DNA from: a bacterium
GTDB taxonomy: Bacteria; 4484-113; JAFGCY01
Reading direction: 5' to 3'
Assembly (NCBI GenBank): GCA_016932385.1
Contig: JAFGCY010000095.1
Span: 59,306 to 123,305, forward strand
DNA: 64,000 nt
Shown piece after piece: positions 1 to 53,267 of this stretch (its first letter is position 1; each line of letters starts with the position of its first letter). The position numbers were made by a program, and so were the translations under genes. The notes beneath the pieces are model-generated. The model was given only the letters and a program-made list of their open reading frames with translations. It did not search any database and had not been told where the DNA came from.

Positions 1-2373
1 AATCGCGAAATAAATATCGATCTCGGGCGACTCCTCCGTATTGTAAACAATCGCCGGCCGGCCGTTGATTTCGGCAATCCATAAGCGCGTGCTACCGAAA
101 GCGTTGTCAGTGACCAATTCCGCCGTTTCCGGCCAGTCGCTACCGGTAGCATCCAAGGCTCGTTTGTAATATAGGTCCTTCTTACCTGATGTGTTATTCG
201 GGCCTCCAGTATAAGCCACAGCGGGCTTTTCGTTGATTACTGCCATTCGGTAGTCCGACAAGATAAACTGGAGTGAATCTAATAGGATCCTATTTTCAGA
301 ATCCCAGGATGAGCCGGAGGTATCCTCAGCGCGAAGGTAATACAGGGGGCGGACGCTCTCCGGCAGAAAATCGGAATACAAAATCGCCGGCCGGCCGCTG
401 ACCAATTGTAGTGTAGGGGAGTATGCCAGTTCGATTCCAGTATCAACCGTCGTCTGGTGCCAGGTTGATCCGAAGGCATCATCAGCCCAGCAATAGGATA
501 GGCAGCCGCCATTGGACGGGTCCTTGTAGCATAGGCCGGGCGCGTTGTTGATATTGGCTAAGTCAAGTATCGTAAAGTTGTTTTCGTTGATTTGCATAAG
601 ACTCGACCAGACCGCGCCAGTATTATCGTTGGCCCTTCGGTAGACATGACCGGTCGGTGTGCCCGACGTGCCGAAGCTGACGGCCGGGCTGCCATCGATG
701 AAAGCGGCGCCATACTCGTAGACAGGCCCTTCAGGCTGTCCGGCCGACACGGGGGTTATCCAACTGGTGCCGTTAGCATCGGTGGCTCGGACATAGAGCA
801 ACCCCCCCTCGCCGAGATAGACAATTGCCGGCGGCCCACATGTCTCCAGGGTTTTCATAAATACGGACATGTAACCGCCGACTGTTTTGGGCGTTCCTGA
901 CCAACTGCTTCCAAGACCATTGTCAGCGCGCAAGAAGCGAACCTCGCTGGCCGTATTATCGTAATAAAAAATAGCTGGATAGCTTCCAGCACTTGTGAGC
1001 ATTGGATCAAACACATCTTGGTCCAGGATCACCGGGTAGACATGCCACTCGGGGCCGGTCCCGCCAACAACCAGGATCTTAGTGCCTGTATCCGTCGCGC
1101 CCAAGTCATCGGTGACGCGCACGGTCGGCTGGTAGGTGCCGGAGTTGTAGGTGTGATCCGCGGTGGCCGTGGTGCCGCTGTCCAGGTCGTAGGTGCCGTC
1201 GCCTTCCCAGTCCCATTCGTATTTCTCGATCGTGCCGTCAATATCGCTGCTGAGCGAGGCATCCAGCGACACGGCCAGCGGCTCGTCGCCGGAAGTGGGA
1301 TCGAGGCTCAGGCTGGCGACCGGTGGATCGTTACCCGGATTGGTCACGGTGACGGTGGCAAACTCGTTGTCCGTCGCGCCCAGGTCATCTGTGACGCGCA
1401 CCACCATGTTGTATGTTCCCGGCGTATCGAAGGTGTGATCGAACGTGGGCGTCGTGCCCGTGTCCGTCCACTCCCAGCCGGGGGCGAAGCCCGTCCACTC
1501 CCATTCATACTTGACGATCGAGCCATCGGGATCGTAGGAGCCGCCGGCATCGAAGGAGACATTCAGGGGAGCATCGCCGAAGTCCGGGGCGGCCGTGATA
1601 GCGGCGACCGGCGGTGTGTTGCCCGCCATGGGCACTTCGGCCCGTGAGCTGGGGGTGCCTTCCGTCGTGCCGTCGGTCGGCCGCACCCAGACGGAGGCAC
1701 CGGCGTTGAGCTGGGCAGCCTGGTAGCTGAACTGCTTGCGCGTGGTGCCGCCACCCGTGGCGGCGCTGAACGCCACCGTATCGATGAGCGTGGCCTGGCC
1801 GTTGCCGTCACCGGCGCTATCGGGATAATCACCGATGTCCGGACTCGTATAAAGGTTGTAGCCGGTGACGCTGCGGCCGAAGGCCTGGCCGATCGGGGTG
1901 ATGTCGTTGACGGTGATGAAACCGTCCTGGTTGCCGTCGACGCAGCTCAGCGCCGAGGAAGCAGCGAACGGTCCCGCCGCGCCGAAGTTCTGGCCCAGCG
2001 GCGTAATGTCGTTGACGGTAACGAAGCCGTCCTGGTTGTAGTCGCCGGTGCTGTAGTAATACCAGGTCAGCGTCAGGGTGCTTGCGTTAATGGATAAGGT
2101 GGTAGCGGAACGGTTGTCCTGGGGCGGTTCACTGGCGATCTTGCCTGCCGGATAGCCGGCCAACACATCGGCGAGCTGGCGCTTCAGCCCGGCGAACAGC
2201 TCGGGATCGACCCCCGGCGGGGTAGTGAGGTTCGCCAATTCCGCAGTCTCTGAATCAACCGTCAGCTCAGGCCGCTGGTTGTCCAGCGAGGCTGTCTGCG
2301 AATGCTGCCCTCCGCCCCCGCAGGCTGCGAGTAACATGCTGACTACGAACAATGCTGCCAGTTTCAGCCGCAT
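1..2373 (-). CDS. Secreted lipoprotein (partial, runs off the window start). It carries two dockerin-type repeats, PKD-like domains and beta-propeller-like repeats.
   Basis: My own reverse translation from the ATG at 2373 gives MRLKLAALFVVSMLLAACGGGG, a signal peptide with a lipobox. Two copies of NQDGF(V/I)TVNDITP(L/I)GQ(N/A)FG are dockerin type I Ca-binding repeats. DGSIVKYEWEW and DGTIEKYEWDW are PKD-like motifs. Repeated xGxPAIxY segments suggest propeller blades. The frame stays open to position 1. The ORF is absent from the track because there is no in-window stop. Confidence 0.6.
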   Translation of the reverse strand, partial: MRLKLAALFVVSMLLAACGGGGQHSQTASLDNQRPELTVDSETAELANLTTPPGVDPELFAGLKRQLADVLAGYPAGKIASEPPQDNRSATTLSINASTLTLTWYYYSTGDYNQDGFVTVNDITPLGQNFGAAGPFAASSALSCVDGNQDGFITVNDITPIGQAFGRSVTGYNLYTSPDIGDYPDSAGDGNGQATLIDTVAFSAATGGGTTRKQFSYQAAQLNAGASVWVRPTDGTTEGTPSSRAEVPMAGNTPPVAAITAAPDFGDAPLNVSFDAGGSYDPDGSIVKYEWEWTGFAPGWEWTDTGTTPTFDHTFDTPGTYNMVVRVTDDLGATDNEFATVTVTNPGNDPPVASLSLDPTSGDEPLAVSLDASLSSDIDGTIEKYEWDWEGDGTYDLDSGTTATADHTYNSGTYQPTVRVTDDLGATDTGTKILVVGGTGPEWHVYPVILDQDVFDPMLTSAGSYPAIFYYDNTASEVRFLRADNGLGSSWSGTPKTVGGYMSVFMKTLETCGPPAIVYLGEGGLLYVRATDANGTSWITPVSAGQPEGPVYEYGAAFIDGSPAVSFGTSGTPTGHVYRRANDNTGAVWSSLMQINENNFTILDLANINNAPGLCYKDPSNGGCLSYCWADDAFGSTWHQTTVDTGIELAYSPTLQLVSGRPAILYSDFLPESVRPLYYLRAEDTSGSSWDSENRILLDSLQFILSDYRMAVINEKPAVAYTGGPNNTSGKKDLYYKRALDATGSDWPETAELVTDNAFGSTRLWIAEINGRPAIVYNTEESPEIDIYFAI

Positions 2374-13289: not shown

Positions 13290-13895
13290 TTATTCTGCCG
13301 GTGGGCTGAATTCCCTGAGCAGTTCCTCCAATCGAACCCGGAAATCCGGGTTGGTCCAGGCCAGCCGGCCGACTTTCATCATGAACTGCATGAACTCCGG
13401 GTCCATGTTTGGCGGCACCTGCTGGAACATTTCGGCGACTTCGGGATTGAAGCCCGGCCTGGGCGCATCGGGCATCTCCGGCCACGGCATGCCGTGGCCG
13501 CCGAAGCGGTGCTCGCCCCAGCCCGGGAATGCCAGCGGCCGGCGCGGGAAACGTGCTTCGTCCGGCCCGTCGCGCTGCATGCCGCGTTGGCGCAGCAGGT
13601 CGACGAGCTGGTGGGCGATCTCGGTGCCGCCGTCATTCTCTTCCTTGTAGGTCAGGTCACCGACGTCGATGTTGAACACGATCTCGTCGATGTTAATCAC
13701 GGTGTTGCCCGTGCCGTCGACGATCGATGGTTCCAGCGTCTCGGCCTTGACGGTAATCTCGTCGCCCACGCTATCCAGCCAGGCGGAGAGCAGGTGCATC
13801 AGCATCCGGCCCCGCTCGGACTTGGCGCCGTCACCGGCGAACGCGGGTACGCTGATCATGAAAGACAACAGAATCGTTAGCCACAGAACACGCAT
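13290..13895 (-). CDS. Secreted hypothetical protein.
   Basis: Cleavable signal MRVLWLTILLSFMISVPAFA. No recognisable domain. It is divergent from the Cys-rich gene pair. Confidence 0.5.
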   Translation of the reverse strand: MRVLWLTILLSFMISVPAFAGDGAKSERGRMLMHLLSAWLDSVGDEITVKAETLEPSIVDGTGNTVINIDEIVFNIDVGDLTYKEENDGGTEIAHQLVDLLRQRGMQRDGPDEARFPRRPLAFPGWGEHRFGGHGMPWPEMPDAPRPGFNPEVAEMFQQVPPNMDPEFMQFMMKVGRLAWTNPDFRVRLEELLREFSPPAE

Positions 13896-14064
13896 TTTCT
13901 CACCTCGAATGGAGAAATCCGGCCAATCAACCTGGGTAGATTGTACCAGTCGGCAATTACCGGGACAGGGTCACTTAAATGTTGATAAAATGTGAATACT
14001 TGCTCATTGTCGCCTCTGGGTAGTATAATTGCGGGACCAAACAACAAACCCAGTGGAGGGTGGA

Positions 14065-14829
14065 ATGCGGAAGCTGATGATAGCCGCGCTGTTCGTGCTG
14101 GCGTTGGGGTGCTTCGCCGGGGCCAGTCTTGCCTATGCGGGCGACTGCTGTAAGCCGAAATGCAAGCAGGAAACCTGCACCAAGGAATGCAAGCCCAAGT
14201 GCAACCCCTGCAAGCCGAAATGCAATCCTTGCAAGCCGAAGTGCGATCCGTGCTGCAAGCCGAAGTGCGATCCGTGCTGCAAGCCGAAGTGCGATCCGTG
14301 CTGCAAGCCCAAGTGCGAGCCTTGCAAGCCCAAGTGCAAGTATGACCTGTGCAGTGATTGCAAGCCCAAGTGCAACCCCTGCAAGCCGAAGTGCAATCCG
14401 TGCAAGCCCAAGTGCGATGCATGCAAACCGTGCTGCAAGCCCAAGTGCAAGCCCTGCTGCGAAGGCAAGTGGGTGGGCGATTACAACGCCTGCTGCCCGC
14501 CGAAGGCTCCGCACGCGTGCTACACGGTCGATCCGTGCACGGTCGGCGCTTACAAGCACCCTTACGAGGCGTGCTGGGCCGGTGATGGCATGCTCTGCGA
14601 CACGGGCTGCTGCGGCACCTACCTGCCGTGCAAGACCAAGTGCATGACCTGCGAGACCATCTGCAAGTGCGTCGAGGTTTGCGATCCCTGCAACCCGTGC
14701 AAGTCGAAGGTCAAGTACGTCTATGAGACGGTCTGCCACGAGATCGAGCGCCCGACGGTGATCCCCTGGTGGTTCAACGAGCGTGGTGCCGGCAATATTT
14801 ACATCGAAGAAGAGAGCGCCGAGGAATAG
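14065..14829 (+). CDS. Secreted, extremely cysteine-rich repeat protein (CKPKC(D/N)PC repeats), resembling keratin-associated proteins or metallothioneins.
   Basis: GGAGGG RBS before the ATG at 14065. Signal peptide MRKLMIAALFVLALGCFAGASLAYA. It is followed by more than 20 near-identical C-K-P-K-C-(D/N/E)-P-C(C) units and then a C-rich tail (CYTVDPCTVG..CCGTYLPCKTKCMTCETICKC). A paralog lies immediately downstream. Confidence 0.7.
   Translation: MRKLMIAALFVLALGCFAGASLAYAGDCCKPKCKQETCTKECKPKCNPCKPKCNPCKPKCDPCCKPKCDPCCKPKCDPCCKPKCEPCKPKCKYDLCSDCKPKCNPCKPKCNPCKPKCDACKPCCKPKCKPCCEGKWVGDYNACCPPKAPHACYTVDPCTVGAYKHPYEACWAGDGMLCDTGCCGTYLPCKTKCMTCETICKCVEVCDPCNPCKSKVKYVYETVCHEIERPTVIPWWFNERGAGNIYIEEESAEE
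14143..14460 (+). repeat. Tandem 21/24-nt coding repeats (tgc(tgc)aagccgaagtgcgatccg and variants) encoding CKPKCDP(C) units.
   Basis: Three perfect consecutive copies of tgctgcaagccgaagtgcgatccg at about 14254-14325, flanked by diverged copies (aac/gat/gag third-position variants). Confidence 0.7.
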
Positions 14830-14903
14830 CCACCGCTGTCCTTGCGCATCGTAGTAGGGCTTAGGCCCGATAGTGTTACGATTTGTAAGCCCGGGAGGGT
14901 GAG

Positions 14904-15293
14904 ATGCGGAAACTGATGATCGCGAGTCTGCTGGCGGTGCTGTGCCTGGGATTCTGGACCGCGGCGTTCGCCGGGGATCGGGTTGAGTTCACGGGCAAGA
15001 CCTATGTCGGCTGGTCCGGCTGGCATGAGTATTCGACTTGGGAGTGCTGCAATCCGTGCTTCACGGCCTGCTACAAGTGCTGCAAGCCGAAGTGCGACCC
15101 TTGCTGCAAGCCGAAGTGCGAGCCCTGCTGCAAACCGTGCAAGCCCTGCTGCAAGCAGGAGATCTGCACGCCGGTTTGCTGCGAGCCCAAGCCGACGAAG
15201 TGCTGCCCCACGCCGGTCTGCGAATATCCCAACGCCTGCAAGGAAGGCGAGGGTGAGTTCGATCGCAACGGTGTCAGCCGCCAAGGCGCTTAA
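14904..15293 (+). CDS. Secreted cysteine-rich repeat protein, a shorter paralog of 14065..14829.
   Basis: RBS gggagggtgag precedes ATG. Signal peptide MRKLMIASLLAVLCLGFWTAAFA nearly matches the upstream paralog. It contains CCKPKCDPCCKPKCEPCCKPCKPCCKQEIC repeats. Confidence 0.7.
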   Translation: MRKLMIASLLAVLCLGFWTAAFAGDRVEFTGKTYVGWSGWHEYSTWECCNPCFTACYKCCKPKCDPCCKPKCEPCCKPCKPCCKQEICTPVCCEPKPTKCCPTPVCEYPNACKEGEGEFDRNGVSRQGA

Positions 15294-15310
15294 CTGACGA
15301 AAACACTGGG

Positions 15311-15347
15311 AAAACTGCCGGAGCCGTTCTGCGGTTCCGGCAGTTTT
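15311..15347. terminator. Bidirectional intrinsic-terminator-like hairpin between the convergent Cys-rich gene 2 and acyP.
   Basis: aaaactgccgga...tccggcagtttt is a perfect 12-bp stem with T-rich flanks on both strands. Confidence 0.5.
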
Positions 15348-15398
15348 GCGCTTATCGGGGACCGGGGGGAATTATCGCGACCGGCGGCCGGTGGATTG

Positions 15399-15716
15399 CT
15401 ACTTATGGGGGACGCGGTCACGCCAAGGGCTGGCGTGGCGAATCTCAAACGCCATGAATTGCTCGTTTGCTTTGAGCGGAGTAACGTTCACTTCATCCAC
15501 GCGTGACGCCGGCGGACCGTCACGCAGGAGCGTCAACAAGTCGCTGAGCACACCCGCGTCGGCGTGTTGGATCACCGCCTGGACGCTGCCGTCACGCTCG
15601 TTCTGCACCCAGCCCGTAACCCCCAAGCGCTTGGCGGCACTAACGGTATGCGCCCGGTAGTACACGCCCTGAACGCGCCCGATAATGCTGACGTGCCATG
15701 TGTTCAGAGGTGTCAT
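15399..15716 (-). CDS. acyP: Acylphosphatase.
   Basis: VSIIGRVQGVYYRAHTVSAAKRLGVTGWVQNERDGSVQAV carries the V-x-G-x-V-Q-G-V-x-F-R and GWVxNxxDGSV acylphosphatase signatures; about 100 aa. Confidence 0.8.
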   Translation of the reverse strand: MTPLNTWHVSIIGRVQGVYYRAHTVSAAKRLGVTGWVQNERDGSVQAVIQHADAGVLSDLLTLLRDGPPASRVDEVNVTPLKANEQFMAFEIRHASPWRDRVPHK

Positions 15717-17871: not shown

Positions 17872-18039
17872 CACTGCTGAGCATACCAGCATGCCTGCCA
17901 GACGCAAACCGAGCCGAGGAGGTTTACCGTGGTCTCGCGAAATACTTGGGCGGGTTCTGGGTAAAGTACACGGTTTGATCACTTGTAGATTCGAGATTGG
18001 TACACGTACAATAGGTGCAAGTTGCTAGGGAGGCTAAGC

Positions 18040-21000
18040 ATGTTCCCATTTGCTATGAAGCTGGTTCGCGGCGCTGTTTTGTTGGTTGTCCTGATTGGCC
18101 TGGTTACCGCGGCGCAAGCCCTGCCGGCCGTACCGGGTGGCGGGAGCGTCCGCGTCCACTTCACCGCCGATCCGATGATCGGTTATGCCCCGCTGGATGT
18201 GGTGCTGGACGCCACGGACGACATGACGGCGGACTTCTATTCCTGGGATATCGACTGGGACGGCGACGGCCTGGTCGATGACGAAGGCAATGACGATCCG
18301 GTGTACGAGGTCACCTACGAGGAGCCGGGGCGCTATTATCCCGTGTTCCGGCTGTTCAACAATGACTTCGGTTTGATCGCGCGGGTCGTGACCGAGGTGA
18401 TCGTCAACAATCCCGAGGAGGATTCCGGCGGCGACGATATCTACGGCGGGATCGATCCCGGTTACGGGACGCCGACCTATAACGCAATCCTGCACTGCGA
18501 GCCGCAGACCGGCGAAGCGCCGTTGACGGTGTACTTCACGGGCGAGGGTGTCGACAAGCAATACTACTTATATTGGGAACTTGATTACGACGGCGACGGC
18601 ATGGCCGACGAAGAAGGCAATGACGAACCGGAAGGGGAGTACGAGTACACCGCCGCCGGCACGTACTACCCGCAACTCACGTACTACAACGACGACTACG
18701 GCGTGGTTACCCAGGCGCAGACGACCGTGCTGGTCACGGCGCCGGCGGGCGGCGAGGATATCGGCACGCCGGGGCTGACCGGTCCCCGCCTGGTCACCCT
18801 GATGGCCGATCCGGAGGCGGGCGATGCCCCGCTGCCGGTCGAGTTCGAGGTCGACGGGATCGATGAGGACGAGTACACGTCCTGGGCACTCGATGTCGAC
18901 GGCGACGGCGCCGCCGACATGGACGACTACGGCGAGTTCGCGGCCGCGATCACCTACGGTCAGCCCGGCACCTACTACCCGGCAGTGGCGTTGTTCAACG
19001 ACGACGGCGGAACGGTCGGCATGGGGGGCTGCGAGGTGGAGGTGTACGTCAATGCCGACGTGGAAATGCTCGATCCGGGCAAGGTATACCTGCAGCCCGG
19101 CCAGCTGACGGATACACTGGCGCCGGAGAGATTCGAGCCGGTGCTGACGGCGCTGCCGGATTACGGCTTCGCGCCGTTCAACGTCAACTTCGCGGTGTCC
19201 GGCGTCGAGATCGATGATTATGCCTATTGGGAGCTGGACTGGGACGGCGACGGCCAGTACGACGGCGGCGACAAAGGCGCAGTGATCTGGCTGGTGACCT
19301 ACGACACCCCGGGCCAGTACAACCCGACGGTCTGGTTCTACGATGACAACCAGCAATTGCTGGGTGAAGCGACCACCGAGGTCTATGTGGCGGATCCGGA
19401 CCAGGCCCGGTTGATCGACGACGCCTTCCCATTCGACGGCGATCCCGAGTATCTGGCCGAGAAGTGGATACCGCGCGTCGACAATGTGAAGCAGCTTACC
19501 CTGACCGCAACCCCGGCCAAAGGGGATGCGCCGTTCGAACCGGAGTTCACGGTCAGCGGCGTGGACTTCAATTACTGGCTGTGGGAGTTGGACTGGGAGA
19601 GCGATGGCACCTGCGACCGCGCCAGCCAGACCTGGAATGGCAAGGTCGAAGGGTACTACTCGATGCCGGGCAAATACACAGCGAAACTCACATTCTATAA
19701 CGATAGCAACCAAGTGATCGCTGAAGGCGAGACACCAGTCGAAGTGACGGGCGCGATGGCTGTTGAACCGCACGATGGTCCACAAAACGCCGTGGCGCTG
19801 AAAGCCTTTCCAACTTCGGGCTTTGCTCCATTGACGGTGGCCTTTGATGCCCGCGAGATTGAGCCGGACAACTGGTATGCCTGGGGCTTCGACCAGGGAG
19901 ATGGAGTCACGTTGTATCCAGAGGGTCGGCCGGTGCCGCAGGCGACGTACAACACGCCGGGGAAATACCGGGCCAGTATCACGTTCTACGATGTGGCTTA
20001 CAAACAGCTTGTTTATGCCGTGGCGGAAATCGAGGTTAAACCCGGTCCCGGCCAGAACAGCTTTCCGCCGCAGGATGTGGTGGCAGATTTGCGCGTGGAG
20101 TATTTCCCTCAGAACAAAGCCCCCTGGACGGTCATGTGGGATGCGCGCAACAGCTATCCATTTGGCGATATCCGCATGTTCCGGTGGGATACCACGGGCG
20201 ACGGCGGCTATACCATTCAGCTGTCAGACAAATATACGCACGAAGCCAAGTATGACCGCCCCGGCCGGTATACGGTCGGCTTGGAGGTCGAGGACAAGAA
20301 CGGCAAGAAGGACCAGGCCGTGCGTACGATTGTCCTGGGCGAATGCTATGCCGATTTGAGCTGCTATCCAGTGCGCGGTACGGTGCCGTTTACCATCCGG
20401 TGCGATGCTTCAGGGTCATGGTCGGCGCAAGGGATCAAGCGCTATTACTGGAAAACGTTCCTGGAAAGCGAGACCAGTATTGCCGACAATGAGTATTACG
20501 TGACGGATTCAACATCGCCGTATTGGGAGCACACGTTTACCGCGCCGGGCAAATACAAAGTTGTCGTTGCCGTCAATGACGGCCAATTCACGGATATGGG
20601 AATGCCGAAGGCGTACATCCCGATCGAGGTCGTCAGCAGCGGCAGCGCACCGAGCGCTGTGTTGTACGCAGATGCTACCGGCGGGCCTGCGCCCCTGCAT
20701 ATCTATTACGGGGCCGGGAGCAGTCGAGATCAAGATGGCTCCATCGCGTCCTACACGTGGGATGGTGATATCAATGACAATGTGCCACCGACGACCAAGG
20801 TTCAGGGCGGCGACCGCTTCGATTACATCTACGAAACACCGGGGAAATACACGGCAGCGTTGTATGTGACCGATAACGACGGTTTGTCCTCGGAAATCGA
20901 AACCGTCGAGATTGTCGTACATTCACCCAGCGGAGGGCCTCCCACGGCCAAGCTGACCGCTACGGTCGCCAAGGGCACCGCGCCGTTCACAGTCGATTTC

Positions 21001-21549
21001 GATGCAACCGGTAGTTTCGACACAGATGGGACGGTCGACAGCTATTTACTGCGACCGGATAACACGGCCCCTTCGATTGTGTTACAGAACACCACGGGCA
21101 AGTTCCAGTACACGTATAAATACAGCGGTACGTATTCCGCCACGCTTTGGGTGCAGGATAACGACGGGTTTGGCAGTACCAACGAGGCCAAGGTCAGGAT
21201 TACCGTTGAGCAAAGCGCCCAAGGCTCCCCCGATAAAGGCGGACCGATTCCGGTTGTGACCTTTACCGCCGGGTCGGGCCTGGATTCGCTGACAGCCAAT
21301 TTCGATGCCACGGCCAGTTATGTCCTCGACCAGTTGGGGGCGAAAGATCCGCAAGGCAAGATCACCACAGTCTATTTCGATCCCAACTTCCGGGATACGC
21401 GCGATGGCTATGTGGTGAAAGGCATGCTCTGGAGCCATACCTACGGGTATGAGGGCACGTACTATGCCGCCGTGATTATGCGTGATGCTGTAAACCGCCG
21501 CAGCGAGCCGTATATCATCAAGGTTGTCGTCAAGAAACCCGCTGGCTAG
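18040..21549 (+). CDS. Giant secreted protein built of about 7 diverged PKD-like modules with DxDGDG-type acidic (likely Ca-binding) loops, plus C-terminal canonical PKD domains.
   Basis: GGGAGG RBS before the ATG at 18040. Signal MFPFAMKLVRGAVLLVVLIGLVTAAQA. Recurrent about 115-aa units contain WDIDWDGDG, WELDYDGDG, WALDVDGDG, WELDWDGDG, WELDWESDG and ...PGxYYP...YND... Later units have DGSIASYTWDGD...YIYETPGKYTAALYVTDNDG, a PKD consensus. Confidence 0.75.
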   Translation: MFPFAMKLVRGAVLLVVLIGLVTAAQALPAVPGGGSVRVHFTADPMIGYAPLDVVLDATDDMTADFYSWDIDWDGDGLVDDEGNDDPVYEVTYEEPGRYYPVFRLFNNDFGLIARVVTEVIVNNPEEDSGGDDIYGGIDPGYGTPTYNAILHCEPQTGEAPLTVYFTGEGVDKQYYLYWELDYDGDGMADEEGNDEPEGEYEYTAAGTYYPQLTYYNDDYGVVTQAQTTVLVTAPAGGEDIGTPGLTGPRLVTLMADPEAGDAPLPVEFEVDGIDEDEYTSWALDVDGDGAADMDDYGEFAAAITYGQPGTYYPAVALFNDDGGTVGMGGCEVEVYVNADVEMLDPGKVYLQPGQLTDTLAPERFEPVLTALPDYGFAPFNVNFAVSGVEIDDYAYWELDWDGDGQYDGGDKGAVIWLVTYDTPGQYNPTVWFYDDNQQLLGEATTEVYVADPDQARLIDDAFPFDGDPEYLAEKWIPRVDNVKQLTLTATPAKGDAPFEPEFTVSGVDFNYWLWELDWESDGTCDRASQTWNGKVEGYYSMPGKYTAKLTFYNDSNQVIAEGETPVEVTGAMAVEPHDGPQNAVALKAFPTSGFAPLTVAFDAREIEPDNWYAWGFDQGDGVTLYPEGRPVPQATYNTPGKYRASITFYDVAYKQLVYAVAEIEVKPGPGQNSFPPQDVVADLRVEYFPQNKAPWTVMWDARNSYPFGDIRMFRWDTTGDGGYTIQLSDKYTHEAKYDRPGRYTVGLEVEDKNGKKDQAVRTIVLGECYADLSCYPVRGTVPFTIRCDASGSWSAQGIKRYYWKTFLESETSIADNEYYVTDSTSPYWEHTFTAPGKYKVVVAVNDGQFTDMGMPKAYIPIEVVSSGSAPSAVLYADATGGPAPLHIYYGAGSSRDQDGSIASYTWDGDINDNVPPTTKVQGGDRFDYIYETPGKYTAALYVTDNDGLSSEIETVEIVVHSPSGGPPTAKLTATVAKGTAPFTVDFDATGSFDTDGTVDSYLLRPDNTAPSIVLQNTTGKFQYTYKYSGTYSATLWVQDNDGFGSTNEAKVRITVEQSAQGSPDKGGPIPVVTFTAGSGLDSLTANFDATASYVLDQLGAKDPQGKITTVYFDPNFRDTRDGYVVKGMLWSHTYGYEGTYYAAVIMRDAVNRRSEPYIIKVVVKKPAG

Positions 21550-44507: not shown

Positions 44508-45383
44508 TTATCGCATAGAATTAAGTAGTCGGGCAAAGAAGCCTTCTCCGCGCCGCGGAACATCCATGCCGATTGTCTCCATAAACACAGTGGCGATGCG
44601 CCGTAGTTCACGTGAGATCGTGGATTGCGGCCGCGCCAGGAAGAACGGCGTGTGGGCCTTAACGCAGCTGCTGACATCCTCGTCACGGGGCAGGCTGCCC
44701 AGCCAATTCAGGTTCAGCCCCAGATAGCTGTGTGCGACCGTAGACAGCGACTTGAAGAACTTAGCGTCGTCGCCGCGCCGTTCAACCATATTCACGATCA
44801 GATGGAGCCCGCTCTGCAAGTTGCCCTGTTTGAGCGCTTTCATCAGGCCGTAAGCATCGACCATGGAGGTCGGTTCGGGCGTCGAGACGATGATGACATC
44901 GTCCGCCGCCAGGGCGAACCGCGTCACCAGCTGTCCGATACCGGCTGCCGTATCGATGACCAGTACATCGTGATCCCGCTCCAACGAGCGCAGCAATCCC
45001 AGCAGGCGCACGATATCCAATGCGTTCAAATTGGCTAGCTCCGGCAGACCCACGCCGCCGGGCAGAACGCTTAAGCCAAATGGCCCGTTAAGGATGATTT
45101 CCGGCAGTGTCACTTGTTGATTGAACACGTGCTGCAGCGTGTACTGCGGATTGAGTCCCAGCACTAGATCGACGTTGGCCAGGCCTAGGTCGCCGTCCAG
45201 GAGCAGCACTTTAGCCCCGCAATCACCCAGGGCCAGGCTGAGATTGACCGCCACGTTGGTCTTGCCAACGCCGCCCTTACCGCCCGTGACCGCCAGCACG
45301 CGGCACATCTGCTTGCCGTTGACGGCGCGGCGCGCCTGGTGCTGTTGAGCCGCGGACCGCAGGTTGTCGGCCTGGTCGTTCAT
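44508..45383 (-). CDS. flhG: MinD/ParA-type flagellar number regulator ATPase (FlhG/YlxH).
   Basis: The deviant Walker A is VLAVTGGKGGVGKTNVAVNLSLAL. The gene is positioned between flhF and cheB. Confidence 0.85.
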   Translation of the reverse strand: MNDQADNLRSAAQQHQARRAVNGKQMCRVLAVTGGKGGVGKTNVAVNLSLALGDCGAKVLLLDGDLGLANVDLVLGLNPQYTLQHVFNQQVTLPEIILNGPFGLSVLPGGVGLPELANLNALDIVRLLGLLRSLERDHDVLVIDTAAGIGQLVTRFALAADDVIIVSTPEPTSMVDAYGLMKALKQGNLQSGLHLIVNMVERRGDDAKFFKSLSTVAHSYLGLNLNWLGSLPRDEDVSSCVKAHTPFFLARPQSTISRELRRIATVFMETIGMDVPRRGEGFFARLLNSMR

Positions 45384-46981
45384 CAGCTGATCCGCCCCTG
45401 CTCGATCCAGGTCTGGACGAATTTCAGGTTGGCCGTGCGGATATCCTCGGGGACGCTTTGGCCGATTGTGAAGTAGCTGATCGGCAACGGGCAGTGCTTG
45501 ACCAGGTTGAACAGCGTTCCCAGGCTGCGCGTTTCGTCCAGCTTGGTGACGATGACATGGTCGTAGGAAAGAGGCTCGAAGTCCTGCAATAACATGCGCA
45601 GGTCATCGCCCTTGGTACTGGCGGAGATCACCAGGTGCACTTCGTCCGGCGGGTGCGCGTTGAAAATCTCGCGCAGCTGATAAATCTGCTTCGTATTCGT
45701 CGGCGCGCGCCCGGCCGTGTCGATCAGCACCAGGTCGTTTTGCCGGCGCTCGGTCAGCACCTGGTCGAATTCCTCGTGGCCAAAGACTATGTCGATTTCG
45801 ATCCCCATGATCTCCGCATAGGTCCTGAGTTGCTCGGCGGCGGCGATGCGGTAGTTGTCCAGACTGACCAGGCAGACGCGCTTGCCATGCTGGAAGGCGA
45901 ACTGGGCTGCCAGCTTGGCGATGGTCGTCGTCTTGCCGACGCCAGTGGCGCCGACCAGGGCCACGGCTTTGCCCGGCGGGGTGGAGCCCAGCTTGATCCC
46001 ACCGCTGAGGAGTACGTTGCGGCAGATGTTATTGCCAATCGCCTTGAGCAGGCTGTCGCGATCGACCTCGGCCTGCTCGTCAAAACCGGCCAGCGCCGTG
46101 TTGATCAGGTCCAGGGCATCGAAAGCGCCGATGTTCCAGTCCAGCAAGCGGTCATAGACCTGTTTCTGTACATCCGGTAACGTCAGGCTCGGATCGAGCG
46201 CCACCGGATCAACCACGCTGCCTGGCGACATCGTGCGCCCAGACGAGGGTAGGTGCGAGACCGTATCGACCACGTCCAGCGGCTTGTAGCCGGGCAGGGT
46301 CATCACGTCGGGTTTGGCTGGGGCCGTATCGCGATCGGCGTCGGATTCCGTCGCCAACTGTTTGATGGTCAGCAGTTGGATCGTGTCGCGCAATTCGCTG
46401 ATCGTGGCCCTTAGCTCGTGGATTTCCTCGGCGGTCGAATCGCCGTTCTGCCCGCTCGCGGCAATTGATTCCTTGATCGGGGGCAGCGGCGCTTGTTGGG
46501 GAATCGACTGAACGGGTTCCCTGGTCGGCTCAGGTTCCGCCATGGGTGGTTCCGCCGGAACCGGCGGGGCCACCCGCAGCGGCTGTTCGGCGTCGGCCAT
46601 CCCCTGCGCGTCCGCATAGATCCTGGCTTCCGCCGACGGATGCGGCGGAACTGAGATCTCCGCGTCCGCGCTGATGTCGACATGCTGGGCGGCGGCAAGC
46701 TGTGCCTGTGGCTCAGGTTCCGGGTCGAGGGGGGCGGTGGTGGCAGGTTCCGTTGGCTTGGGGATCCGCACGGCGGCGGGTGTTACCGGCTTCTGGCCAT
46801 CAACCTGCAGGATCGCGACCACCTCGATCATGCGCTCGCCACCGAATAGCCCGAGGAAACGCCGCCGCCGGAATTCGCGGGTTTCCAGCTCGGCGTCCGG
46901 GCCCATCTCTTCTTCGATGCGGGCAAGCAGCCTGTCGAGTTCGACGAGCGGGGCCTCATAGCGTTTGATGCGTGTTGCCAT
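45383..46981 (-). CDS. flhF: Flagellar biosynthesis SRP-type GTPase FlhF.
   Basis: The G-domain has VALVGATGVGKTTTIAKLAA, then LVSLDNYRIAAAEQLRTYAEIMGI and DLVLIDTAGR. A long Pro/Glu/Ala-rich linker follows the N-terminal B domain. Confidence 0.85.
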   Translation of the reverse strand: MATRIKRYEAPLVELDRLLARIEEEMGPDAELETREFRRRRFLGLFGGERMIEVVAILQVDGQKPVTPAAVRIPKPTEPATTAPLDPEPEPQAQLAAAQHVDISADAEISVPPHPSAEARIYADAQGMADAEQPLRVAPPVPAEPPMAEPEPTREPVQSIPQQAPLPPIKESIAASGQNGDSTAEEIHELRATISELRDTIQLLTIKQLATESDADRDTAPAKPDVMTLPGYKPLDVVDTVSHLPSSGRTMSPGSVVDPVALDPSLTLPDVQKQVYDRLLDWNIGAFDALDLINTALAGFDEQAEVDRDSLLKAIGNNICRNVLLSGGIKLGSTPPGKAVALVGATGVGKTTTIAKLAAQFAFQHGKRVCLVSLDNYRIAAAEQLRTYAEIMGIEIDIVFGHEEFDQVLTERRQNDLVLIDTAGRAPTNTKQIYQLREIFNAHPPDEVHLVISASTKGDDLRMLLQDFEPLSYDHVIVTKLDETRSLGTLFNLVKHCPLPISYFTIGQSVPEDIRTANLKFVQTWIEQGRIS

Positions 46982-47007: not shown

Positions 47008-49182
47008 CTATTCCTCACCTTCCTTTTTCGTACCCTCTGGATCCATGATTGTAGCGATAGTTCTGATATCGATCTCGCCAACAATTTCACCATAGCTCAG
47101 CATGACCAGTCCCGGGAAGACCTTAGCCAGAATCTTCCGCAAATACGGGCGCACCCGCGGGCTGACCAGGAAAATCGGCGTCAGGCCCTTGGCGATCGCC
47201 GCCTGGACATGCCTGGTGCAGGAACCGACCAGTTCGCGCAGGTACTTCGGCGCTAGCACCGGAATGGTTCCCGTGGTGGTCTGCTGCAGGCTGCTGGCGA
47301 CTCTTTCCTCTACGCGCGGATCGACCGTCAGCACCGTCAGCTTGCCTTCGTCGTCCAAGTAGTCGGCGATGATCTGGCGCCCCAGGTTGATCCGAACGTA
47401 TTCCGTCAGGATCTCGGGATCCTTGCTTAAGCCGGCGTTGTCGCCCAGGGTTTCCAGGATCACCGGCAGGTTGCGGATGCTGACCTTTTCGCTCAACAAC
47501 AGCTGTAGCACACGCTGGATATCGCCGACGCTGAGCTTGTCCGGCACGAGATCACTGACCACCGCGGGGTATTTGCCCTTGATCATATCGATCAGCTCCT
47601 GCACGGCCTGGCGGCTGAGCAGTTCCGCGGCATTGTTGCGGATCACTTCGGTCAGGTGGGTGGCGAGCACGGTGGCCGGATCGACGACGGTGAATCCCTC
47701 CGTTTCGGCGCGGGTCCGGTCTTCGGTGCTGATCCAGAGCGCGGACAAGCCGAAGGCGGGTTCCTGGACCTCGATACCCTCGATTTGTGTATCCGCACCC
47801 AGGGGATTCATCGCCAGGTAGCGGTCCAGCATCAACTCGCCTTTGGCGACGACGCTGCCCTTGATCTTGACGTGATACTCGCCGGGTTTGAGCACGATGT
47901 TATCGCGAATCCGCATCGGCGGCACGATGAAGCCCAGGCTGATCGCCACCTGCTTGCGAATATTGTTGACGCGCTCCAGCAGGTCGCCGCCCTGATTTTT
48001 ATCAACCAGCGGGATCAACCCGTAGCCGATCTCCAACTCCAGCAGGTCGACGCTGAGCAGCTGTTCCAGGTTGCGCCGGGCTTCTTCCTCCGGTGACAGC
48101 CGTTCGACGGGCTCACCCGGCGCGCCCGGTCCACCCGCAGCACCCGGCAGCGCTCCTTCGGGCAGTCCGGCGACCTGGTCAGCCAATTCGCTGCGCCGCT
48201 GCGACCAGGCCAGGAAGCCCAATACCGCGCAGGAGCTCCAGATGAACAGCTTTGGCATGCCGGGCACCAGGCTGATCACGAACAAAAACGCGGCGCTAAT
48301 CGCCAGCGCCCGCCACTGCGAAGTCAGCTGTGTGATCACGGACAGGCCGACGGTCTCGTCGGTAGCGGCCTTGGTGACCATGATGCCCGTGGCGGTGGAG
48401 ATCAGCAGGGCCGGGATATTGGCGACCAATCCGTCACCCACCGTCAGGTTGGTGAATGTCGTCAGGGCTTCGCCGGCGGCCATGCCCTTTTGCAGCATGC
48501 CGACCGCGAAGCCGGCGCCGATGTTGACGATGATCAGGATGATGCCCGCCATCGCGTCACGTTGGACGAAGCGGCTGGCACCGTCCATTGCGCCGAAGTA
48601 GTCCGCTTCGCGCTCCAGCTGCCGCCGGCGCTGGCGGGCCTGCTCTTCATTGATGATCCCGGCGTTGAGATCGGCGTCGATGCTGATCTGCTTGCCGGGC
48701 AAGGCGTCCAGGGTGAAACGTGCCGCCACCTCACCGATGCGCTGGGCGCCGTAGGTGATAACAACAAAGTTGATCACCACGATGATGATGAAGATCACCA
48801 GCCCGACAACGGGATTGCTGCCGGTCACGAAGGTGGCGAAAGTGTTGATCACGTGGCCGGCGTTGGCGTTGCTGAGGATCGACCGCGTGGTGGCGACATT
48901 GAGAAACAGGCGGTAGATCGTGGTAAACAGAATGACCGTCGGGAAGATCGAAAAGTCCAGCGGGGCGCGGACGTACATCGTAGTCAGAATGATCAGGACG
49001 CCGGTGATCAGGCTGAAAATCACGAACAGGTCGAGGATGCCGGGCGCGAACGGGATAACCAGCATCAGCACCGCGGCCAGCACCAGGAAGGGAATCAGCG
49101 CCTCCATCTGCTCGCGCCTGAGCGTCAACCGCCCTAACAGGCCCAGTGCACCGGTGCTTGCCCGTTGTTGCTGAACAGCCAT
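47008..49182 (-). CDS. flhA: Flagellar type III export apparatus protein FlhA.
   Basis: 724 aa. N-terminal TM region LVLAAVLMLVIPFAPGILDLFVIFSL... FHIPVTL-like export-gate blocks and a cytoplasmic domain GIPLVDKNQGGDLLERVNNIRKQVA are present. Confidence 0.9.
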   Translation of the reverse strand: MAVQQQRASTGALGLLGRLTLRREQMEALIPFLVLAAVLMLVIPFAPGILDLFVIFSLITGVLIILTTMYVRAPLDFSIFPTVILFTTIYRLFLNVATTRSILSNANAGHVINTFATFVTGSNPVVGLVIFIIIVVINFVVITYGAQRIGEVAARFTLDALPGKQISIDADLNAGIINEEQARQRRRQLEREADYFGAMDGASRFVQRDAMAGIILIIVNIGAGFAVGMLQKGMAAGEALTTFTNLTVGDGLVANIPALLISTATGIMVTKAATDETVGLSVITQLTSQWRALAISAAFLFVISLVPGMPKLFIWSSCAVLGFLAWSQRRSELADQVAGLPEGALPGAAGGPGAPGEPVERLSPEEEARRNLEQLLSVDLLELEIGYGLIPLVDKNQGGDLLERVNNIRKQVAISLGFIVPPMRIRDNIVLKPGEYHVKIKGSVVAKGELMLDRYLAMNPLGADTQIEGIEVQEPAFGLSALWISTEDRTRAETEGFTVVDPATVLATHLTEVIRNNAAELLSRQAVQELIDMIKGKYPAVVSDLVPDKLSVGDIQRVLQLLLSEKVSIRNLPVILETLGDNAGLSKDPEILTEYVRINLGRQIIADYLDDEGKLTVLTVDPRVEERVASSLQQTTTGTIPVLAPKYLRELVGSCTRHVQAAIAKGLTPIFLVSPRVRPYLRKILAKVFPGLVMLSYGEIVGEIDIRTIATIMDPEGTKKEGEE

Positions 49183-49527: not shown

Positions 49528-53160
<3,633 letters not shown>

Positions 53161-53267
53161 GTATGTACTCCTCTTCCATCTGGATAGGTTCGTTACACAG
53201 CCCACCGGATGACGCGACTCCGCCCGCGCGTTATGGCAGACTATTGCCCCACGTTTCAGACGTCTAA

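Follow-up and report, generated by a model that had tools for sequence, protein, structure and literature searches.

A conserved gene pair for cysteine-repeat proteins in uncultured planctomycetes, most likely an envelope cross-linking or metal-binding system

What might a bacterium do with two neighboring genes whose products both carry tracts of short Cys-Lys-Pro repeats? The question is raised by a planctomycete contig (GTDB 4484-113; JAFGCY01), of which a stretch of 64,000 nucleotides, hereafter the window, was analyzed. Two adjoining, co-directional genes, A and then B, lie on its + strand, together with the following elements.

13975..14739, - strand: antisense open reading frame (ORF) of 254 aa, rich in Ala, Leu, Arg and Gly, in exact antisense register with A
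14024..14029, + strand: perfect TATAAT hexamer, read directly from the sequence, 35 nt 5' of the A start codon
14055..14063, + strand: Shine-Dalgarno-like element of A, GGAGGGTGG, with GGAGG at 14055-14059, five nt 5' of the ATG
14065..14829, + strand: gene A, an ORF of 254 aa (signal peptide, Cys-Lys-Pro repeat tract, conserved C-terminal domain)
14830..14903, + strand: A-B spacer of 74 nt, with the ribosome-binding site of B, GGGAGGG, at 14893-14899
14904..15293, + strand: gene B, an ORF of 129 aa (signal peptide, GKTYVGWSGWH motif, Cys-Lys-Pro repeats, conserved C-terminal motif)
15309..15348, no strand assigned: strong hairpin with an A-run on one flank and a U-run on the other (-32.3 kcal/mol, z -6.4, matched by 0 of 200 shuffles)

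Both A and B are genuine + strand genes. Over six orthologues of A, substitutions at + frame codon positions 1/2/3 numbered 118/90/278, and in the nine CKPKCxP units nucleotide variation outside the x codon falls exclusively at third positions, i.e., the units vary synonymously only; because of this bias and this pattern of repeat variation, the + frame is taken as the coding frame. In one orthologue comparison, the sense frame held 11 synonymous vs. 9 non-synonymous changes, and the antisense frame 1 vs. 19. Orthologue differences in the antisense ORF are nearly all non-synonymous, and its length is not kept in locus L003; it was rejected as a gene and is regarded as a by-product of repeat composition. 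Comparison of orthologues shows both A and B to be under purifying selection. The first-pass annotation of this DNA had named two possible objections, antisense-only coding and frame-breaking changes in repeat number; selection was found on the + frame and not on 13975..14739, and every length change found was in frame. The reading in which the + strand is a non-coding tandem repeat, or 13975..14739 the real gene, might appeal to the long open ORFs in several frames on both strands and to a related contig (L006) in which a public gene caller chose the antisense over the cysteine-repeat ORF, but it is already contradicted by the data: besides the codon-position bias and the near absence of antisense synonymous changes, between-strain indels are all multiples of 3 and of whole units, conservation extends to the signal peptide, the C-terminal domain and the ribosome-binding site, and an Rfam scan of the window found no family. 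We give it a negligible chance.

The start of A is almost certainly ATG 14065, as GGAGG lies five nt upstream and every homologue opens with MRK; the first-pass annotation had placed both ORFs correctly, and its 14029 is just the mechanical TTG start. The TATAAT hexamer is a possible -10 element. A consensus promoter scan found no good -35 to pair with it, and its sole report was GGGACA-18-TAAAAT at 13962-13991. B is preceded by a nearly identical Shine-Dalgarno-like element, GGGAGGGTG, and the DNA of the two genes hardly differs over the ribosome-binding site and the first ~24 nt. The signal peptides, earlier called near-identical, are identical over their first seven residues and not beyond. 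A and B are probably co-transcribed, since the spacer holds no strong terminator (the fold of 14828-14903 was not better than shuffles; z -1.5), and the hairpin at 15309..15348 is a probable bidirectional terminator, common to the B side and a convergent acylphosphatase gene.

The two proteins contain the following parts.

14065..14139, + strand: A signal peptide, MRKLMIAALFVLALGCFAGASLAYA then GD, of Sec type and without a twin-arginine motif
14140..14463, + strand: A repeat tract, residues 26-133, CKPKC(N/D/E)PC(C) units interrupted by CKQETCTKEC and CKYDLCSDC
14230..14309, + strand: three perfect consecutive 24-nt units in A, TGCAAGCCGAAGTGCGATCCGTGC, with perfect periodicity ending at 14309
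14464..14556, + strand: A linker, GKWVGDYNACCPP...CYTV..., delimited by alignment
14557..14802, + strand: A C-terminal domain, HPYE...CDTGCCG...LPCK..CxTCETxCK...DPCxxC...YVYETVCHEIERPxVIPWWFNExGxGNIY
14641..14742, + strand: predicted long beta-hairpin, residues 193-226 (AlphaFold2 pLDDT about 70-83, two independent runs)
14803..14826, + strand: A acidic tail, IEEESAEE, whose length and sequence differ across the family
15078..15156, + strand: B repeat array, CCKPKCDPCCKPKCEPCCKPCKPCC, TRF period 24, 3.4 copies
15201..15290, + strand: B C-terminal motif, CCPTPVCEYPNAC...GEFDRNGVSRQGA, CCPxPxCEYPDxC…GEFDRNGxSR

In A, the predicted A-x-A then GD cleavage site, placed from the motif, is conserved throughout the family alignment. 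A lipoprotein reading was rejected because the Cys of LALGC is not conserved (it is replaced in homologues P0006, P0010 and P0017), and a Tat/Fe-S reading because there is no RR motif and the N-terminus is MRK. From their N-terminal sequences, we infer that A and B are exported.

In the A tract, Cys makes up 31.8%, Lys 27.1% and Pro 20.6% of 108 residues, one of which is aromatic, and the pI is 8.9. The 25-30% cysteine first attributed to the proteins suits this tract and not the whole chains (A 20.5%, B 17.8%; mature chains 22% and 21%). The three perfect consecutive 24-nt units were confirmed from 14230, and TRF reports a 24-nt array at 14208-14337 (5.7 copies, 90% matches) or, as an alternative, 21-nt units at 14188-14426 (11.2 copies). 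The sequence TGCAARCCNAARTGC occurs 13 times in the window, always within A or B, and 0 times in 100 shuffles. Repeat number changes in frame between strains. Thus, alleles 98-100% identical elsewhere hold 3, 4 or 5 CKPKCEP units, near-identical alleles differ by exactly one 7-aa unit, and in a 94% identical strain indels of 3, 15 and 3 nt are the sole differences in length, which bears out the ongoing repeat expansion and contraction proposed earlier. B has one 8-aa unit fewer in L009 (94% identical strain) and in P0054 (121 vs. 129 aa).

Across the family, the A tract ranges from 70 to 152 aa, and in the N-terminal tract Cys keeps to 14-29% whereas Pro drops from 20% to as little as 2% and Lys from 28% to as little as 4%; distant homologues with 2-4% Pro keep their Cys density. 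Since Cys is held while Pro and Lys fall, selection would act on thiol density, and the family comparison shows that what is conserved in the tract is cysteine density only, not repeat sequence. C-x3-C (302) and C-x2-C (218) are the dominant Cys spacings, with C-x-C in distant members, and some lineages have His inserted in the units (CHSC, CKHKC). The total number of Cys in mature A homologues is odd in 17 and even in 15, a mix that speaks against all disulfides being closed within one chain and permits intermolecular ones. B repeats find their best match in A of the same genome in three of five genomes, so that a concerted-evolution test was partly positive; a repeat-only query left 7 B-like proteins after bias correction. 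At least four other architectures bear the same cysteine module, at either their N- or their C-terminus, and one of them (P0035) shares an assembly with an A-B pair. In addition, a third tandem paralogue (P0041, P0042, P0044; L001) carries a Met/His-rich tail, e.g., MPMDHPGMQPMNDHDVMPMGFHGEHHHGHH; Met/His-rich motifs mark periplasmic Cu-binding proteins. Pfam scans of P0035, P0042, P0043 and a neighbor protein gave no matches.

While the tract turns over rapidly, the cysteine-rich C-terminal domain of A (~85 aa) is conserved about as well as the neighboring GltX, as judged by eye; over 23 sequences its columns are on average 70% identical, with Y, C, T, C, C, R, P, P, W, W, F, G, N and Y never replaced. 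Conserved positions in the domain include six Cys as well as His and Glu. The domain has no relative in Pfam, NCBIfam or the PDB, where a sequence search with its profile gave 0 matches at E<=10. In the two AlphaFold2 runs (mean pLDDT 50 and 60), the hairpin was the sole confident part, the tract stayed at pLDDT <50, and no helices were predicted outside the A signal peptide; a Foldseek search of the model against the PDB found nothing better than a meaningless E of 6. An EF-hand/dockerin-like Ca-loop reading of NEKGDGNIY was rejected because the liganding positions are not conserved. In the linker, a W...CCPP motif is kept in about half of the family.

B homologues (P0054-P0064, P0045, P0047) share a C-terminal motif in which, by alignment, C100, P109, C112, R121, S125 and R126 are invariant and P102, E107 and Y108 at least 90% conserved, and this conservation extends to the distant loci L017 and L018. 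A B-type gene lies directly 3' of A in 14 distinct loci, which include members at 37-47% identity with proline-poor repeats. This distribution shows the A-B pairing to be ancient, and its retention in distant members fits a two-subunit assembly.

A-B is a new family and a conserved gene pair not described before. A search of 5.8 billion clusters gave 53 A homologues, none of them eukaryotic; about 40 were full-length, all starting with MRK, and the A of the window was 100% covered, at 42-94% identity, by about 45. Members of the A family combine a signal peptide, a Cys-dense tract and a domain of the form HPYE...CDTGCC...CxTCET...RPxV(I/V)PWWF...GN.Y; those of the B family combine a signal peptide, a Cys-dense tract and C.P....E(Y/F)P(D/N).C......R(N/D).xSR, directly downstream of A. 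The family is very rare: the A C-terminal domain accounts for 11 true clusters among 1.84 billion representatives, and the family occurs in 2 of 185,579 species genomes, both labeled uncultured Planctomycetales. Near-identical contigs are present in samples such as Ga0180429, Ga0180431 and Ga0180436. An exact-sequence look-up found A not on record, and a literature search on CKPKC returned irrelevant matches only. The conserved neighbors (acylphosphatase, gltX and an S8/PKD protein) represent housekeeping synteny, and A-B sits beside acylphosphatase and gltX in the core genome across genus-level divergence, not in an accessory island. Gene-neighborhood analysis revealed no functional partner besides B, and no Dsb-type or other envelope-assembly gene is linked to the A-B loci. 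An upstream secreted protein of 201 aa was rejected as a member of the system, being only locally syntenic and only mildly Met-rich. The window also encodes a pyruvate:ferredoxin oxidoreductase (PFOR), a hint that the host is anaerobic and that its exported thiols might remain reduced. The A C-terminal domain, the B C-terminal motif, the deep conservation of the pair and the module in other proteins are all absent from the first-pass annotation.

To which known systems might A and B be compared? At E<=10, the only match of hmmscan against Pfam-A was Trypan_PARP for A (E 1.6), B having none, and an NCBIfam scan of both gave nothing meaningful. The kinship to keratin-associated proteins, SPRR proteins or metallothioneins suggested at first sight thus found no Pfam or NCBIfam match at E<=10, and the resemblance is compositional only. 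Keratin-associated, late cornified envelope (LCE) and SPRR proteins, which are proposed disulfide cross-linkers, likewise have Cys/Pro-rich short tandem units (CPPKC-like) and unit-number size polymorphism, but they are eukaryotic, intracellular, without a signal peptide and Ser/Arg/Gln-rich, whereas A and B are Lys-rich. The Keratin_B2, KRTAP, LCE and Cornifin Pfam models did not match at E<=10; judged from sequence composition, the likeness is convergence only. In the PVC superphylum, chlamydial OmcA and OmcB are an exported Cys-rich envelope pair, small and large, encoded side by side and forming a disulfide cross-linked shell. A and B resemble them as an adjacent small/large Cys-rich pair with predicted export; however, the Omc proteins contain a far smaller share of Cys and no short tandem repeats, one of them (OmcA) is a lipoprotein, and the Chlam_OMP3 and Chlam_OMP6 models gave no match to A or B at E<=10.

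A link to planctomycete YTV proteins had also been proposed from a CYTV motif in the longer paralogue. Planctomycete cell-wall preparations yield cysteine-rich YTV proteins (PMC8567305, PMC12673574), which carry multiple YTV motifs (PMC12673574). The single CYTV copy does exist in A, but it is retained only in the closest relatives (the window, P0001 and L009) and replaced in most homologues, e.g., by VCIDNC in P0002; B has none, PF07639 did not match at E<=10, and the link was abandoned. YTV (PF07639) proteins are exported, cysteine-rich and lineage-restricted within Planctomycetota, as A and B appear to be, and by this analogy A and B could play a similar envelope role; they differ in that YTV proteins lack CKPKC repeats, the A C-terminal domain and the A-B pairing, with no sequence relationship. 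Being restricted to a narrow uncultured lineage, the A-B family is no wall component of planctomycetes in general, a point against the cross-linking reading given below.

A-B is most likely an envelope cross-linking or metal-binding system. Of these, we tentatively favor, with somewhat less than even confidence, a disulfide cross-linking envelope module, and on sequence grounds we infer both the cross-linking and the envelope location. A and B would be co-expressed proteins of the envelope or periplasm, exported by Sec and sharing one plan, i.e., a signal peptide, a cationic tract of about 30% cysteine that evolves fast, and a C-terminal part that is specific to the family and evolves slowly. 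The cysteine tract would serve as a multivalent thiol module that forms intermolecular disulfide bonds, tying A, B and other module-bearing proteins into a cross-linked extracytoplasmic layer, a functional analog of keratin-associated, chlamydial Omc or planctomycete YTV proteins. The hairpin/PWWF domain of A and the EYPDxC...DRNGxSR motif of B would give specific assembly or anchoring. Replication slippage or recombination would set how many repeats there are, and their number would tune valency or length. The occurrence of the module on at least four other architectures means that it behaves as a portable anchoring or cross-linking module. The recovery of cysteine-rich proteins from planctomycete cell walls (PMC8567305, PMC12673574) is likewise in keeping with this reading.

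Known bacterial metallothioneins are cytosolic, whereas A and B have signal peptides. The strongest competitor of cross-linking, possible although rather unlikely, is an exported metallothionein-like sponge or buffer, in which reduced Cys arrays in an anaerobe's periplasm would bind soft metals (Cu(I), Zn, Cd, Ni) in thiolate clusters, repeat number would set capacity, and the C-terminal parts of A and B would oligomerize, anchor or hand over metal. The A tract resembles metallothioneins (OdiMT2, SmtA/BmtA) in having about 30% Cys, many Lys, almost no aromatics, C-x(1-3)-C spacing, predicted disorder and a population-variable repeat number, and the lack of a predicted tract fold is as expected of apo-metallothionein. 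Together with the His within units, these traits would count against cross-linking, as would the Met/His-tailed tandem paralogue, the lack of a linked Dsb-type gene and the PFOR hint of anaerobiosis. There are also precedents: in Oikopleura metallothioneins, metal capacity scales with the number of repeats, which differs from population to population (PMC8283569), and Csp1 is an extracytoplasmic Cys-rich protein that stores many Cu(I) ions (PMC7558416). However, Csp1 is a pre-folded four-helix bundle exported by Tat, whereas A and B have Sec-type signals, disordered tracts and no predicted helices; neither a Cys-lined four-helix bundle nor a Tat signal was found in A. Moreover, the Sec signal peptide targets a normally oxidizing compartment, metal-wrapping metallothioneins do not usually have units with 20-37% proline, neither a gene for metal resistance nor a metal-sensing regulator lies near any examined locus, and no metallothionein family matched in Pfam or NCBIfam at E<=10. 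The metallothionein composition (Cys about 30%, C-x(1-3)-C, few aromatics) is confined to the repeat tract; instead of being small, cytosolic and wholly Cys-rich, mature A is a much larger chain of 229 aa, proline-rich, with a highly conserved, aromatic-containing and presumably folded C-terminal domain, and the obligate A-B pair is not readily explained. Were it nonetheless right, for which we see only a modest chance, this would be the first extracytoplasmic metallothionein-like bacterial system, a two-protein Sec-exported thiol array capturing or buffering thiophilic metals in an anaerobic planctomycete, its capacity tuned by gain and loss of 7-8-residue units and its module grafted onto other periplasmic proteins, including the Met/His-tailed paralogue.

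An improbable third possibility is a rigid spacer or tether, a Lys-Pro, disulfide-braced, TonB-like stalk that would position the C-terminal domain off the membrane or wall, the cysteines only stiffening it. The periplasm-spanning segment of TonB has Pro/Lys repeats like KPK, which the A units resemble, and both the variable tract length and the confinement of strong conservation to the C-terminal parts would suit a stalk. Yet the mature N-terminus has no membrane anchor or lipobox, the proline-poor, Cys-dense tracts of distant homologues are unexpected for a polyproline rod, and the module occurs also C-terminal to other domains. Less probable still is a secreted cationic Cys-rich effector, whether antimicrobial or bacteriocin-like and acting with a partner, or adhesive in the manner of a holdfast: the mature regions combine a cationic, Cys-rich composition with predicted secretion, repeats vary rapidly as in surface or antagonistic proteins, and a secreted Cys/Tyr-rich ORF in one locus (L013 1672..1959) loosely recalls adhesive proteins, but the pair sits in conserved core synteny, immunity, transporter and processing genes are not linked, and the A C-terminal domain is under strongly purifying, not diversifying, selection.

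Under either the cross-linking or the metal reading, the locus is a clean example of three things: a coding microsatellite that differs in unit number among alleles otherwise nearly identical, a cassette of two genes kept while its repeats are wholly rewritten, and a region where public gene callers at times choose the wrong strand. If A and B bind metal, they would be the first exported metallothionein-like bacterial system, with relevance to metal homeostasis in sulfidic sediments and to bioremediation. If they cross-link, as we favor, an uncultured planctomycete lineage would have used a portable repeat module to make a disulfide matrix resembling that of keratin-associated proteins, which would provide an independent case for the long-debated protein-rich, cysteine-rich planctomycete envelope.

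The two cysteine-rich repeat genes, A and B, are adjacent and co-directional and are followed by a hairpin:

14065..14829, plus strand: gene A, an ORF of 254 aa
14904..15293, plus strand: gene B, an ORF of 129 aa
15309-15348: strong hairpin downstream of B (-32.3 kcal/mol, z -6.4)

The start of A at 14029 in the first-pass annotation was merely a mechanical TTG; we instead place it at the ATG at 14065, which sits five nt after GGAGG and begins the MRK that opens all homologues. Since folding detected a strong hairpin after B and none in the A-B spacer, the two genes probably form one transcript.

Four observations support the plus frame as the coding frame of A. Six orthologues were compared over 49 ungapped codons of the A C-terminal domain: codon positions 1, 2 and 3 of this frame carried 118, 90 and 278 differences, respectively. 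Many changes were synonymous in the sense frame and almost none in that of ORF 13975..14739 (minus strand), which runs exactly antisense. When the nine CKPKCxP units within A were compared, all nucleotide differences outside the variable x codon were third-position and synonymous. The only indels in L009, a related contig with 94% DNA identity, were 3, 15 and 3 nt long, and three alleles, 98-100% identical elsewhere, had 3, 4 or 5 CKPKCEP units, giving proteins of 187, 194 and 201 aa. Thus, neither of the outcomes that the annotation had named as telling against A, a real gene on the antisense strand or frame-breaking variation in repeat number, was observed, and a non-coding feature is excluded. 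The antisense ORF was rejected as a gene, being an Ala/Leu/Arg-rich by-product of repeat composition. At locus L006, downstream of an A homologue, the public gene call (969..1454, minus strand) is an Ala/Leu/Arg-rich 161-aa antisense ORF, opposite which lies a Cys-rich 108-aa ORF with a signal peptide (1038..1364, plus strand). Because gene callers apparently mis-strand such repeat genes, protein databases may list fewer members of the family than exist.

We then analyzed repeats and composition. TRF located 24-nt and 21-nt arrays within A (14188-14454) and a 24-nt array within B (15078-15156); A has three perfect 24-nt units from 14230, with perfect periodicity up to 14309. TGCAARCCNAARTGC occurred 13 times in 64 kb, every time within A or B, and never in shuffles. 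Cysteine accounts for 20.5% of the residues of A and 17.8% of those of B. Four segments make up protein A: a Sec-type signal peptide whose AYA|GD site is conserved, the repeat tract (residues 26-133; 31.8% Cys, 27% Lys and 21% Pro; cationic, pI 8.9), an optional linker (W...CCPP), and a highly conserved C-terminal domain of ~85 residues (HPYE...CDTGCCG...LPCK..CVTCETVCK...DPCTGC...YVYETVCHEIERPxVIPWWFNExGxGNIY) with an acidic tail. AlphaFold2 did not give the tract any fold (pLDDT below 50) and modeled, confidently in two runs, one long beta-hairpin at residues 193-226. Neither a Foldseek comparison of the A model with the PDB nor an HMM search of PDB sequences with the C-terminal domain returned a match. 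Protein B is also four-part: its signal peptide is followed by an N-terminal segment that varies (close relatives have GKTYVGWSGWH), by a short repeat tract and by a conserved C-terminal motif, CCPxPxCEYP(D/N)xC...GEFDRNGxSRxxA.

Across 32 A homologues, Cys in the N-terminal tract was held at 14-29% with short spacings (x3, 302; x2, 218; x0, 58; x4, 57; x1, 47), while distant homologues had as little as 2% Pro and 4% Lys, down from 20% and 28%, respectively. Total Cys counts were odd and even equally often. Unusual unit variants were often common to A and B within one genome (GESKCHSCKPKCDPC in L005, CKPVC/CCNPC in L003, CCKPKC(D/E)PC in the window); a 6-mer sharing test of this same-genome likeness was positive in only three of five genomes.

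Searching 5.8 billion protein clusters with A gave 53 matches, all metagenomic and none named. Its C-terminal domain profile retrieved only 11 genuine clusters from 1.84 billion representatives, and the domain was present in 2 of 185,579 species genomes, both labeled uncultured Planctomycetales bacterium; a metagenome scan added 11 further loci. A B-type gene lay directly 3' of A in 14 distinct loci, including L017 and L018, two loci with only 37-47% identity in A and with proline-poor repeats of the CGCNKCNSC type. A and B are a real, previously undescribed pair of protein families from an uncultured planctomycete lineage.

In Pfam and NCBIfam, neither protein matched a YTV, metallothionein, keratin-associated, LCE/SPRR or chlamydial Omc model at E<=10. 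YTV proteins, found in cell-wall preparations, are defined by multiple YTV motifs (PMC8567305, PMC12673574), whereas A has a single, non-conserved CYTV, and the link proposed earlier on that motif falls away. The suggested kinship with keratin-associated proteins and metallothioneins reduces to a likeness in composition. Csp1 is a Tat-exported four-helix bundle (PMC7558416); A and B are neither. In composition, the two are analogous to cysteine-rich proteins with known structural or metal-binding roles; they belong to none of these families.

The pair lies within conserved core synteny: upstream are genes for a secreted protein and cytidine deaminase, and downstream come convergent acylphosphatase and gltX, followed by an S8/PKD protein. 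Relevant features of the window are:

13290..13895, minus strand: secreted 201-aa protein, divergent, slightly enriched in Met (6-9%; segments HGMPWPEMP and MDPEFMQFMM)
15399..15716, minus strand: acylphosphatase gene, convergent to B, probable terminator hairpin common to both
18022..21549, plus strand: protein of 1175 aa; three PKD domains, weak match to Excalibur
45383..46981, minus strand: SRP54-type GTPase, read as FlhF from its position beside FlhA
47008..49182, minus strand: flagellar FlhA
49528..53205, minus strand: single-chain pyruvate:ferredoxin oxidoreductase (PFOR)

The 201-aa protein, which has no Pfam match, keeps its position in L002, L003 and L009 but not in more distant loci. 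The acylphosphatase is the most widely conserved neighbor (seven loci: window, L002, L003, L004, L005, L009 and L013) and has no obvious functional link to the pair. S8 peptidases of 899-976 aa fill the position of the PKD protein in syntenic L001, L002 and L003. Among the genes linked to the pair, none was for Dsb, metal resistance, regulation, transport or modification. The window also encodes DnaG, PheS and a class I tRNA synthetase. With PFOR, FlhA and the presumed FlhF, this gene content marks it as chromosomal and its host as possibly motile and anaerobic, a point relevant to the redox state that exported thiols would have.

Related genes and fusions of the repeat module were found at other loci:

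L001 9399..9833, plus strand: P0042, third tandem paralogue, immediately 5' of A in one lineage (also P0041, P0044)
L007 6001..7134: CKPKC/CKQxTCT module fusion
L008 151..873: CKPKC/CKQxTCT module fusion
Proteins P0051 and P0053: module C-terminal to cytochrome P460 (PF16694)

The third paralogue, without a Pfam match, has a signal peptide, CKPKC repeats and CYCCP...KPFGY, and then a tail rich in Met and His, MPMDHPGMQPMNDHDVMPMGFHGEHHHGHH, that looks like the copper-binding motifs of periplasmic proteins. The module, CKQxTCT punctuation included, is also found C-terminal to a 250-aa unknown domain (P0035 type, encoded in the assembly of the L002 pair) and N-terminal to another (P0043 type). 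In P0052, whose gene adjoins murC-ftsA-ftsZ, it precedes an unknown domain ending GPGGCPRMVLF. In L013, 1.3 kb upstream of the A-B pair, a 95-aa ORF (1672..1959, plus strand) with a signal-peptide-like start is extremely Cys/Tyr-rich (28% Cys, CCC and YYYYY runs; ...CDCCCPSYSYCCNDCCCGCYYYYYPCCCNYCYYDCCC...) and, judged by its sequence, looks like another secreted hyper-cysteine protein.

Together, these comparisons show a thiol-dense two-protein module, exported by predicted signal peptides, with conserved, specific C-terminal parts and a fast-resizing tract. Two mechanisms fit, and our tentative first choice is that the cysteine tracts would form intermolecular disulfides, cross-linking or anchoring the proteins in the envelope. 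We rank it first because both proteins are predicted to be exported, the module is portable, occurring N- or C-terminal to unrelated domains, the obligate pairing of A with B is reminiscent of systems with major and minor subunits, the parity of Cys counts is random, and the PVC group offers precedent for cysteine-rich envelope proteins. Second, and ranked only slightly lower, is an exported metallothionein-like metal sponge. In its favor are the metallothionein-like composition and spacing of the tract, its predicted disorder, His within the units of some lineages, the Met/His-rich tail of one paralogue, the possibly anaerobic host, and the scaling of metal capacity with repeat number in metallothioneins (PMC8283569). 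Less likely are a tract serving as pure spacer and an antimicrobial or adhesive role for A and B. Envelope cross-linking thus leads this ranking, and the conserved cassette, population-level unit polymorphism and portable module make the system well worth experimental follow-up.
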